Shown: positions 12,300 to 15,649 of the stretch, piece by piece
How the letters are laid out: each line of letters opens with the position of its first letter
Numbering within the stretch: position 1 is the stretch's first letter
Assembly: GCA_951406725.2 (NCBI GenBank)
Contig: OX597820.1
Location: 124,001-188,000, forward strand
Direction of reading: 5' to 3'
Length of the DNA stretch: 64,000 nucleotides
DNA from: Octopus vulgaris
Taxonomy: Eukaryota
Translations under genes and position numbers: made by a program
Notes under the pieces: generated by a model
What the model was told of the DNA's origin: nothing
Databases searched by the model: none
The model's input: only the letters and a program-made list of their open reading frames with translations

Positions 12300-12432
12300 G
12301 TCGTGCAGTTACTGTTTATACCTCGTTCAGAGATTTATTATTGATAATAATAATAATAGTAATAATAATAACGATTATTATTATTATTATTATTATTATT
12401 ATTATCATTATCTATTATTATTATTATTATTA

Positions 12433-12615
12433 TCATTCTATGTTTGACTTTTGCTTTATATTTGTACAAGTTGGCTCCAAGTCTCACCCAGAGACCTCAA
12501 GAGAAAACAGGTTGGAAGTTCACGTTGTTGTTATGCCTAGTGTGCCATATATTTGGTTGTTTTTTTTTTGTGTTGTACTAGTGGATATCTAAAAAAAAAA
12601 TTGTTTGTTTTCAAC
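12433..12615 (-). mobile_element. 3' UTR of R4/Dong family C (inverted)
   Basis: Reverse complement of the 3' end seen at ~29880-30103 and ~31920-32138. Confidence 0.8.
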
Positions 12616-12648
12616 CTATGCACGTGATGTCTATTCTGCTTTACTTAC

Positions 12649-12765
12649 CAAAGCAAATTCTACCGTTCAACTCGAACCCTGGACTGCAGGCACATGTGTA
12701 GGATCCTGGTGTGTTGGTGCAATCCTCATTTACCCCGCATGGCCAACCAGTGCACTCGTTAATGT
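12649..12765 (-). CDS. Inverted cbEGF exon ([39 protein letters not shown])
   Basis: 117 bp, open frame, acceptor tttcaAG and donor GTAAGT on the minus strand; antisense to the host gene, so probably not spliced into it. Confidence 0.7.
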
Positions 12766-13270
12766 CTTGAAAGTAAAACAATTTTATTGCGTGAATATAA
12801 TACTTATGTTTCATCATCAATCATCCTCATCAAACTTCCTCATCAATCATCTTATGTTTCATCATCATCAATCATCATCATCATCATCATCATCATCATA
12901 ATCATCAATCATCATCATCATCGTCATAATCATCTTCATCATCATTTCCATCATTCATCATCATCATCATCATCATCATCATCCCCATCATCAACATCAT
13001 CATCATTATTATCTTTATTATTTTTATTATTATTATTATTATTATTATTATTATTATTATTATTATTATTATTATTATTATTATTATTATTATTATTATT
13101 ATTATTATTATTATCATTATTATTATTATTATTATTATTATTATTATTATTATTATTATTATTTATTATTATTATTATTATTATTATTATTATTATTATC
13201 TATTATTATTATTATTATAACTCGAAACCAGTTACACCTATACACGTGATGACTATTCTGCTTTACTTAC

Positions 13271-13387
13271 CAACGCAAATTCTACCGTTCAAATCGAACC
13301 CTGGACTGCAGGCACATGTGTAGGATCCTGGTGTGTTGATGCATGTCCCCTGTGTCCCGCATGGGTCTGCTGTGCACTCGTCTATGT
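13271..13387 (-). CDS. Inverted cbEGF exon ([39 protein letters not shown])
   Basis: 117 bp, open frame, ttccAG acceptor and GTAAGT donor on the minus strand. Confidence 0.7.
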
Positions 13388-13699
13388 CTGGAAAGTAAAG
13401 CAATTTTATGGCATGGATATAATACTTATGTTTCATCATCAATCATCCTCATCAATCTTCCTCATCAATCATCTTCATCAATTATCACCAATCATCATCA
13501 TCATAATCATAATCAATCATCATCATCAATCATCAATCATCATTAATCATCATCATCATTATTCATCATCTTCATCAAACATCATCATCATCATCATCAT
13601 CATCATCATCATGATCCCCATCATCATCAACATCATCGACATCATTATCATCATTATTATTATTATTATTATTATTATTATTATTATTATTATTATTAC

Positions 13700-14092
13700 T
13701 TTTTTTTTCTTCTTTCAAATTTGCTTCCATTTCTTGCCGAATGTCTTCCCGACTCCTAGGGCAAAGAAACTCATAGTATACATTGGTAGGCCATTAAACC
13801 AAACTCAATAGTTCGTTCATTTTTTTTTTTTAAGTTAAATTAAAATACATGAGCAGCAACAGTTCTCACATCGACAATGCTCTTCTCAATACGTGTGATG
13901 TACCAGTTAAGACAATCTTTTGCACTTCTTGCAGGGATGGTAAGCCAGGGATCATTCTCATATAATTTTCGGTTCCCTTCTTGATCATTCCTAGTGCTCC
14001 TACGATCACTGGTATTGTAACCGCCTTGAGATGCCACATTTTCTCAATTTCAATGAGTATGTCTTTACATTTTCTGAGCTTGTCAAACTCTT
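13700..14092 (-). mobile_element. 5'-truncated R4/Dong family B copy (inverted)
   Basis: KEFDKLRKCKDILIEIEKMWHLKAVTIPVIVGALG...RRALSM plus 3' UTR, near-identical to ~25941-26327, flanked by (TTA)n. Confidence 0.85.
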
Positions 14093-15649
14093 TATTATTA
14101 TTATTATTATTATTATTATTATTATTATTATTATTATTATTATTATTATTATTATTATTATCATTATTATTATTATTATTATCATTATTATTATTATAAG
14201 AACTGCCCACATCCTACGCAAAAACTATCAATTGAATAAATTACGTAAACAAAGCAACCCATAGACACAAGATTCACTTTATACAGCAATTACCCATGCA
14301 AATAAAAAAAACTTCCAGCAGTAACCCATTTAACCAACACATTACATAGACAATGCACAATACAAGCAGTAATGCAAAAAACACTGCACCACATCTTAAG
14401 AGAAAAAATAACTGGCGCAATACAATATCGGGAAGTTTCCACACTCCCAACAACAGAAAGGAACACACGATGTTGCACATACCCACCCCAGCAACACGGT
14501 GGTGTAGCAAGAAATGCAGTAGAAATCTGCCTCAAGCTACCAATAATAATCATTAAAGTAATAATCGTTATATCTGAATCCTTAACACTCACACTATCAA
14601 AAGAAAAAAACAGCCATTTTAGGAACGGCCCATAAGACACGATTAATTCAATACTACAACCTAAACAACTATCCAATGAAATAAACTACCACAAGCAAGC
14701 TGATTAACCTAGGTATTACACAATCAACACACAATACAAATACTAATTCGACAAAACACTGCATTACAACCCTACAATATGGAGATGTAGCCGTTGCTGC
14801 AGTAGAAATTTGCCTCAAGCTACCAAATGTTGAACAAGAACAATAAGAACAAGACTAGTAATCATTTCTCCTATAATCACAAGGCCTGACATTATGAGGT
14901 GCGGCTTAAGTCGATTAGATCGACCCCGGTACTCAACTCGTACTTAATTTATCGACCTCGAAAGGTTATAAAGCAAAGACAATTTCTGCGAATAAAACAT
15001 TTATTTTATATACATATATAGATAAGGCCTAATATTTTCTTAATATTTTCTATTTTATATCCAAATATAACAACCAATGGTCTCGTTTAAAATTTCCTTT
15101 TTCTTTCGTATCACAATCCTTTGAAGAAAAGCATCGCTATTTCTTCCATTTTCTTTTTCCTGTTTTATATTCTAATATATGCAAATGAGCGTCGTGTCGT
15201 CTCGTTTTCTTTCCACAATATTTGATCAGTTTGTGTCCATTTTGATGTTGTATATAATCCCTTTGCCACAGCAACTGAGCTGAGAAAGGTCTGACTTCTG
15301 TTAAAAGAACATGGTGCATCTACCTTATTCTACAATAGGCACAAGGCCTGATATTTTGGTGGGTAGGTCGGGGTCAGTTGATTACATCGACACTAATACT
15401 TGAATAGTGCCCATTTCATCGACTCTGCCAACTCATCACCTTAATAATAACAACAACCACAACAGCGACGAGGACGGGGAGGAGGACGAGGACGAGGACT
15501 ACGACGATGACGACGTTAATGATGATGATGATGATGATGATGAAACATAAGTGTTATATCCATGCAATAAAATTGTTTTACACAGAAAGTTATAATAATA
15601 ATAATAATAATAATAATAATAATAATAATAATAATAATAATAATAATAA

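Follow-up and report, generated by a model that had tools for sequence, protein, structure and literature searches.

The window analysed here is a 64,000-nucleotide (nt) stretch of Octopus vulgaris DNA (NCBI GenBank assembly GCA_951406725.2, contig OX597820.1, positions 124,001 to 188,000, forward strand). It contains a plus-strand gene with a tandem array of calcium-binding epidermal growth factor-like (cbEGF) exons and, upstream of that array, an inverted block with two further copies of such exons, named A and B. Scanning the window for the acceptor pattern of these exons revealed 17 cassettes (an exon with its flanks), two on the minus strand and 15 on the plus strand. The block extends over 12374-14197 (1,824 nt), in agreement with an earlier note, made from the sequence alone, that had placed a segment of about 1.8 kb upstream of the sense array. 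The same note had proposed that the antisense copies could act as an editing-complementary sequence, an exon selector or a silent gene-conversion donor. We found that the block is real in the assembly, intronic and probably accidental. The coordinates of the features are given in Table 1.

Table 1. Features of the host gene and the inverted block, in window positions.
Feature	Positions	Strand	Basis and remarks
Host exon, first half of cysteine-rich N-terminal domain	6814..6894	+	tblastn of P0026, 79%; last 30 nt joined to 11590 in X9; AG/GT flanks
Host exon, second half of N-terminal domain, last before block-bearing intron	11590..11666	+	tblastn of P0026, 68%; X9 joints
Intron with inverted block, 4.6 kb assuming the nearest EGF exon as partner	11667..16296	+	X9 uses donor 11667 and has intron contigs at 11873-12287 and 12521-12651
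Left boundary: flip from a short AAT tract to an ATT tract (12374-12437)	12340..12437		Sequence; skipped as repeat in the read comparison
LINE-C 3' end	12438..12613	-	Alignment to copies at 29850-30115 and 31890-32150; 91.6% over 227 nt
Inverted cbEGF exon B	12649..12765	-	117 nt; 96.6% to sense exon 33625; AAG acceptor; 1 private exon change
GAT/AAT microsatellite spacer between inverted cassettes	12811..13218	-	GAT part closest to that of sense cassette 33625
Inverted cbEGF exon A	13271..13387	-	117 nt; mosaic; 3 private exon changes
GAT/AAT spacer upstream of exon A	13433..13698	-	Closest to spacer of sense cassette 21379, not to the spacer after LINE-B in the array
LINE-B 3' end, 5'-truncated, 394 nt	13700..14093	-	Differs from the long copy at ~22300-26327 at 7 of 386 aligned nt
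Right boundary: ATT tract abutting 5'-truncated LINE end of plus strand	14092..14197		ORF-terminal motif at 14202
Sense array: 13 open 117-nt phase-1 cbEGF exons and 2 broken	16297..34905	+	Each between GAT/AAT tracts; LINE pieces in the tracts
First sense cbEGF exon	16297..16413	+	Only sense exon <3 kb from the block; predicted duplex partner of exon A
Candidate coding start of last exon, short, ends in stop	37763..37773	+	Open reading across exons

In minus-strand order, the block consists of an AAT tract, the 3' end of one long interspersed nuclear element (LINE-B), an AAT/GAT spacer, exon A, a second spacer, exon B with a cut flank, the 3' end of another element (LINE-C) and a final AAT tract, with ATT/TCA microsatellites on the forward strand. 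The two LINE 3' ends, which the earlier note had overlooked, account for about 570 of the 1,824 nt, and the remainder is mostly microsatellite besides the exons. The long LINE-B copy ending at 26327 carries a reverse transcriptase domain (RVT_1). The LINE-C piece in the block, about 175 nt in length, meets the flank of exon B at a 4-nt shared word, and the end of this flank, together with its AAT tract, is lost there. A blast search of 12373-14198 against the window gave, outside the block itself, matches on the minus strand only, and the cassettes, spacers and LINE pieces of the block carry private sequence absent elsewhere in the window. Both ends of the block are ATT tracts. The change from AAT to ATT that had been described for both ends is present at the left end alone (12361-12400), where the junction has its own interrupting bases; at the right end, the ATT tract adjoins a LINE end of the plus strand that is truncated, and further right no AAT tract of at least six units occurs before 15594. 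Just left of the block we noted a 108-nt hairpin element (12192-12299) with a 33-bp perfect arm, many copies of which occur in the DNA runs.

Exons A and B each have an open frame, six cysteines and a GT donor, and match the Pfam family EGF_CA (PF07645) with 38.7 and 36.7 bits, respectively, against a cut-off of 27. The acceptor of exon B, however, is AAG as compared with CAG in the other 16 cassettes, and its downstream flank ends after 35 nt at the LINE junction. Hence the description of two intact antisense EGF exons holds for the two open 117-nt frames but not for the acceptor and flank of exon B, which are decaying. Exon A is 82-89% and exon B 75-97% identical to the 13 open sense exons. 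Exon A is a mosaic, its first 60 nt being two changes away from the type found at 28461, 30506 and 32541, and its last 57 nt two changes away from exon B. Private changes within the exons number one in B and three in A, all four of them amino-acid changing, and the intron between A and B is still present in the block.

The sense cassettes are up to 99.5% alike over the cassette, and every array cassette is bounded by AAT tracts, of which positions 1-38000 contain 24, along with eight ATT tracts. The two broken cassettes, at 21961-22028 (68 nt) and 27734-27848 (115 nt), have a 2-nt deletion in common, and one of them lacks a further 47 nt. Since both keep AG/GT, they must be skipped, or else the frame breaks. 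Seven of the eight LINE motifs that mark the end of an open reading frame (ORF) are on the plus strand, and the eighth, on the minus strand, lies inside the block. Plus-strand LINEs of several families with reverse transcriptase were observed in the AAT tracts between cassettes (17000-20818, 22300-26327, 29124-30100, 31163-32140 and 35978-36937), with an ORF-terminal motif common to all. Comparison of 28245-30860 with 30273-32897 indicated a recent 2-kb tandem duplication of two cassettes and a LINE piece (95.5% over 2,646 nt). A cassette stub at 15506-15581 on the plus strand, composed of a GAT tract and the start of an upstream flank with no exon, is followed by an AAT tract and a LINE piece.

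The named protein closest to the host gene is P0026, predicted from Octopus vulgaris as "wall 2-like isoform X3, partial", in which a signal peptide and a linker precede a cysteine-rich domain and tandem cbEGF domains, with five tandem EGF_CA stretches. When joined, the N-terminal exon pair, the 13 open EGF exons and the piece at 37763 read open to a stop at codon 563. The N-terminal domain may be EMI-like; no Pfam family was found for either N-terminal exon or for the matching part of P0026 at E 0.1, and a match to an EMI cluster in the ESM Atlas, at 0.77, serves as a lead only. A homolog search with residues 85-190 of P0026 returned 20 proteins, which besides P0026 itself were EGF-driven matches only. 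The first 90 residues of P0026 (signal peptide and linker exons) gave no tblastn match in the window under E 0.1. A possible first coding exon at 1365-1395, with an ATG, a hydrophobic start and a GT donor, was noted by eye and does not match P0026.

To place the block relative to this gene, positions 11530-12810 were compared with four of the 24 listed runs, all of them assembled contigs and none raw or long reads. One of them, X9, is by our guess RNA and bears a related organism label (B), contigs of label A being closer to the window; the contigs carry no strand. Run X12 (RNA by guess, organism A) left exon 11590-11666 uncovered and run X5 (DNA, organism B) positions 11530-11787, and these blanks do not count as evidence. 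In X9, loose contig ends connect 6894 with 11590, and 11666 with the first bases of an EGF exon, the identity of which is ambiguous because ten sense cassettes have identical first 20 nt, and two X9 contigs contain a joint of one EGF exon to another. These spliced joints place the host gene on the plus strand and the block within the intron after 11666, as the earlier note had supposed when it put the block inside the gene. In addition, a 132-nt X9 contig (depth 41) spans the LINE-C/exon-B junction of the block with one other letter and one gap. A 418-nt intron contig has a depth of 128, while the exon contigs reach thousands; such depths, and sums of them, describe the run and are not copy numbers or expression levels. 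Since X9 totals 77 million contig letters as compared with 2,600-2,700 million in the DNA runs, genome-wide carry-over of DNA into X9 at such depth is unlikely. These data support the conclusion that the block is transcribed as intron and then removed in the related organism. Contigs of the unique intron differ from the window at zero or one place in organism A (three listed) and at three places in 124 nt and five in 416 nt in organism B.

A nested antisense paralog was considered and rejected, as no second pair of N-terminal exons was found on the minus strand. Of a summed depth of 11,052 in X9, no more than 28.7 carries the private base of exon B at 12652, which is a weak hint against a spliced antisense gene. 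We also observed that 11588-11589 reads AC before exon 11590, although the RNA of organism B joins 6894 to 11590; this may reflect a lost acceptor, a base error or a GT-AC intron. Skipping of this 77-nt exon would shift the frame, with a stop at codon 54. At this place, the contig of run X1 begins about 30 nt upstream.

We next consider the pairing capacity of the block. The earlier claim that the inverted cassettes are near-complements, about 200 nt long, of every downstream cassette including the splice sites was borne out: about 200-220 nt of each inverted cassette are complementary to all 15 sense cassettes, splice sites included. Folding of the block against the cassettes, which that note had suggested, gave predicted duplex energies of -233 to -348 kcal/mol for exon A and -170 to -363 kcal/mol for exon B across the 15, as compared with -77.8 +/- 7.0 kcal/mol for 30 base shuffles of one cassette. 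The longest perfect helices between inverted and sense cassettes are 21-58 bp. In the minimum-energy fold of 13180-16500, the first sense exon is paired with exon A at 102 of its 117 nt, as are 26 of 27 nt of the acceptor and all 9 nt of the donor. Positions 82 and 114 of this exon form A:C mismatches in the predicted helix. A search of 11400-16500 against Rfam detected no families. Inverted duplicates in pre-mRNA, defined as a reverse-oriented match of >40 nt with 70% identity within one pre-mRNA, occur widely among 49 organisms and show only weak depletion in introns (PMC7006430). The block exceeds this threshold, with both arms in one transcription unit as judged from X9 under the related organism label. 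A separate inverted pair, 98% identical, is formed by 1554-1720 with 35474-35626 and 35810-35976, a short interspersed repeat near both gene ends.

Only the nearest sense cassette lies close to the block, at 2.8 kb; the other 14 are 7.9-21.3 kb away. Nearby inverted copies are known to raise editing (PMC4829317), and editing of human Alus decays over a length of about 800 bp (PMC4066801). If this decay is carried over, the first exon would receive about 3% of the editing of an adjacent pair and the next cassette 5e-5, an extrapolation from human that may not be the cephalopod scale. Squid tissues other than the nervous system rarely show robust recoding, and the editing that is ubiquitous there is found mostly in repeats of untranslated regions and introns (PMC9068888). 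Duplexes covering whole exons show scattered rather than site-selective editing, and coding edits within long duplexes mostly look like by-products of hyper-editing (PMC9989829). In X9, no A-to-G change was present among the 16 listed places, although this test is weak, as contigs drop rare variants, the individual is another one and only changes of at least 10% are covered. T-to-C changes in X9 occurred at 11925 and 12006 only; both are intronic, and one is also present in both DNA runs.

The possibility of an exon selector was addressed by the joints between EGF exons. By definition, a Dscam-type selector allows a single array exon into the message (PMC6071210). Two X9 contigs connect one EGF exon with another, so the single array exon expected of a mutually exclusive selector was not found. 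This argues against a one-of-many selector, one of the roles suggested in the earlier note.

Whether the intact frames of A and B point to selection was examined by simulation. After three random changes, the frame was open in 87-90% of trials, and the frame, six cysteines and AG/GT were all kept in 51-53%. Given the youth of the copies, with one and three private changes, their intact frames therefore need no selection. Private-change rates were similar in the cassettes and in the adjoining LINE-B piece, the count for the upstream flank omitting cassettes 21379 and 34270, which contain indels. The sense array itself has two broken cassettes out of 15, which we count among the signs of decay, along with the acceptor and flank of exon B.

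Taken together, these results suggest, with a probability that we put at about 0.6, that the block is an unselected inverted duplicate of two of the gene's own EGF cassettes, generated by repair through AAT/ATT microsatellite homology, and that its pairing is a side effect. A break in an ATT-oriented tract of the intron may have invaded an AAT tract of the array; two cassettes would then have been copied, and return through another tract would have forced the reverse orientation. TAA-seeking LINEs could subsequently have left the two truncated 3' ends in the tracts of the block, as they presumably did across the array. By the same process, copying between tracts of the same orientation would add sense cassettes, and landing in an ATT tract would yield a reversed one. 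In the pre-mRNA, exon A is predicted to zip with the first sense exon 2.8 kb away, giving at most low-level scattered editing or some skipping, and the other 14 cassettes would be too distant for much effect.

The block could also have arisen by 3' transduction, in which read-through of a LINE gave a transcript with a LINE-B end, both cassettes, a LINE-C end and an AAT tail, which was then reverse-transcribed into an ATT-oriented tract; this origin, likewise functionless, is in our view unlikely. The minus-strand order of a truncated LINE-B followed by a LINE-C 3' end and an AAT tail is indeed that of the array at 25941-30164, 5' truncation and a 3' tail, as expected of LINE transduction, are present at the insert ends, and Dong elements that target TAA are known, including in a snail (PMC3812793). 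The details of the block do not fit this donor, however: the spacer after LINE-B is unlike the one after LINE-B in the array, 26558 not being among its six best matches, the exon types differ from those between LINE-B and LINE-C in the array, the LINE-C piece is only about 92% identical to the array copies, and the putatively transduced flank differs from the DNA downstream of LINE-B in the array. Transduction of a transcript is also opposed by the unspliced intron between A and B. We favor DNA repair because this intron is retained and because the spacer after LINE-B matches that of cassette 21379 and not the one after LINE-B in the array. A different explanation, which we regard as quite improbable, is that the orientation or position of the block is an assembly error and the cassettes are real but lie in sense orientation in the array or in a paralog. 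Such an error could be invited by the microsatellite and multicopy LINE sequence at either end, and the family has a second gene model (P0026). The flip at 12332-12445 was skipped as repeat, the compared positions reach no further than 12810, and no listed contig links the left flank to exon B, so that the orientation of the block relative to the gene rests on the assembly. Nevertheless, the private sequence in the cassettes, spacers and LINE pieces shows that the block is no collapsed copy, interrupting bases of its own are present at the flip junction, and the block junction was recovered in an independent run alongside the neighboring intron.

Functional readings were weighed against the same data. 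Direct action of exon A, which would pair with the first EGF exon, its two splice sites included, and drive editing by ADAR, an RNA adenosine deaminase, or skipping, at that exon, with cassettes landing in reversed tracts serving as antisense guides, seems to us an unlikely outcome as well. That the block is a kept regulatory arm, tuning the EGF exons as an editing-complementary sequence or a mask of splice sites, we consider quite doubtful: 14 of the 15 cassettes are remote, A-to-G places are absent from the X9 list within the limits of that test, the EGF exons are strung together, no sign of constraint was seen while exon B decays, and whole-exon duplexes would yield scattered editing (PMC9989829). 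The functional roles proposed earlier are thus not supported. The idea that the block is a silent reservoir donating sequence to the sense exons by gene conversion we hold to be very improbable. The cassettes are mosaic, and exon A unites the 5' half of one type with the 3' half of another, which shows that exchange between cassettes has happened. On the other hand, no sense exon has the combination of exon A, the 3' half of A is nearest to B (two changes) and not to a sense exon, and the sense copies have many closer partners within the array; nothing points to donation from the block to the array.

Several observations weigh against an unselected origin by repair. At the first sense exon, the predicted helix takes in acceptor and donor alike. 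Inverted complementarity in the transcription unit comes overwhelmingly from the block, which raises the share of inverted arms from 877 to 12,096 of 36,441 nt, as computed with low-complexity masking for an assumed unit of 1360-37800. The block junction is present under a second organism label, so the block is at least as old as the split between those lineages or haplotypes. The neutrality test has low power, as amino-acid changes likewise make up 13 of the 16 private changes of the sense exons. The editing check covered sense exons only through their likeness to exon B, and changes at contig ends appear to be unlisted. Finally, neither a target site nor a donor sequence was recovered that would tell repair from retrotransposition.

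Elsewhere in the window, two 1-kb direct repeats, 97% alike, flank a 1.7-kb GC-rich core at 40833-44552, resembling an element with long terminal repeats, and a remnant of a mariner-like transposase was recognized by eye at about 44655-45940. A 509-nt segment is duplicated at 58847-59355 and 63494-64000 with 97.6% identity, and by eye contains an ankyrin-repeat-like exon at about 59053-59208.

A neutral inverted duplicate of this kind would be an ordinary product of a repeat-rich genome, and a tidy case in which microsatellite orientation decides between a coding and an antisense copy. It also offers a natural test, with one intronic arm facing 15 partners that are 75-97% alike and 2.8-21 kb away in a spliced gene, by which the reach of a cephalopod ADAR duplex could be measured, as could the capacity of a newly arisen duplex over an exon to seed recoding. 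If editing or skipping were found, the block would exemplify how exon duplication can lead to an editing guide in one step, and if exon A does act on the first EGF exon, the repeat machinery that lengthens the protein would also write its editing guide. A search of the open-access literature (Creative Commons PubMed Central and bioRxiv) turned up no account of this locus, nor of an editing guide in octopus formed by an inverted exon copy.

The arrangement can be compared with several known systems. Editing-complementary sequences of the GluA2 Q/R type are short, imperfect and usually conserved, and direct one or a few sites. The octopus arm resembles them as an intronic complement of a coding exon that is predicted to pair, but it is a young duplicate of a whole exon, located upstream and at least 2.8 kb away. 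P0026 shares with the host gene a cysteine-rich N-terminal domain followed by tandem cbEGF domains, with 79% and 68% identity to the N-terminal exons and 85% to a sense EGF exon; it is, however, a different copy of the family, and tblastn did not locate its signal peptide and linker exons in the window. As in TAA-targeting retrotransposons of the Dong type, which lack long terminal repeats (non-LTR), the LINE pieces lie in AAT tracts and follow tract orientation, and long copies encode RVT_1 (PMC3812793). The designation Dong/R4-like denotes a resemblance, and such elements would explain two parts of the block but not its exons. The docking site/selector system of Dscam1 likewise has one upstream element that is complementary at every member of an array, here 15 of 15, and arises by duplication; pairing there exposes one exon, and only one is included, whereas pairing in octopus would cover the exon and both splice sites (PMC6071210). 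Opposite intronic Alus can pair and alter splicing (PMC2533698). Like such Alu pairs, the octopus arms are 200-400 nt long and 75-98% complementary, one of them is intronic, they derive from repeat turnover, and their effect is expected to fall with distance (PMC7006430, PMC4066801, PMC2533698). Unlike those pairs, the octopus arm copies coding exons of the gene itself, splice sites included, and not a transposon alone, and it faces 15 possible partners, the double-stranded RNA being a prediction only.

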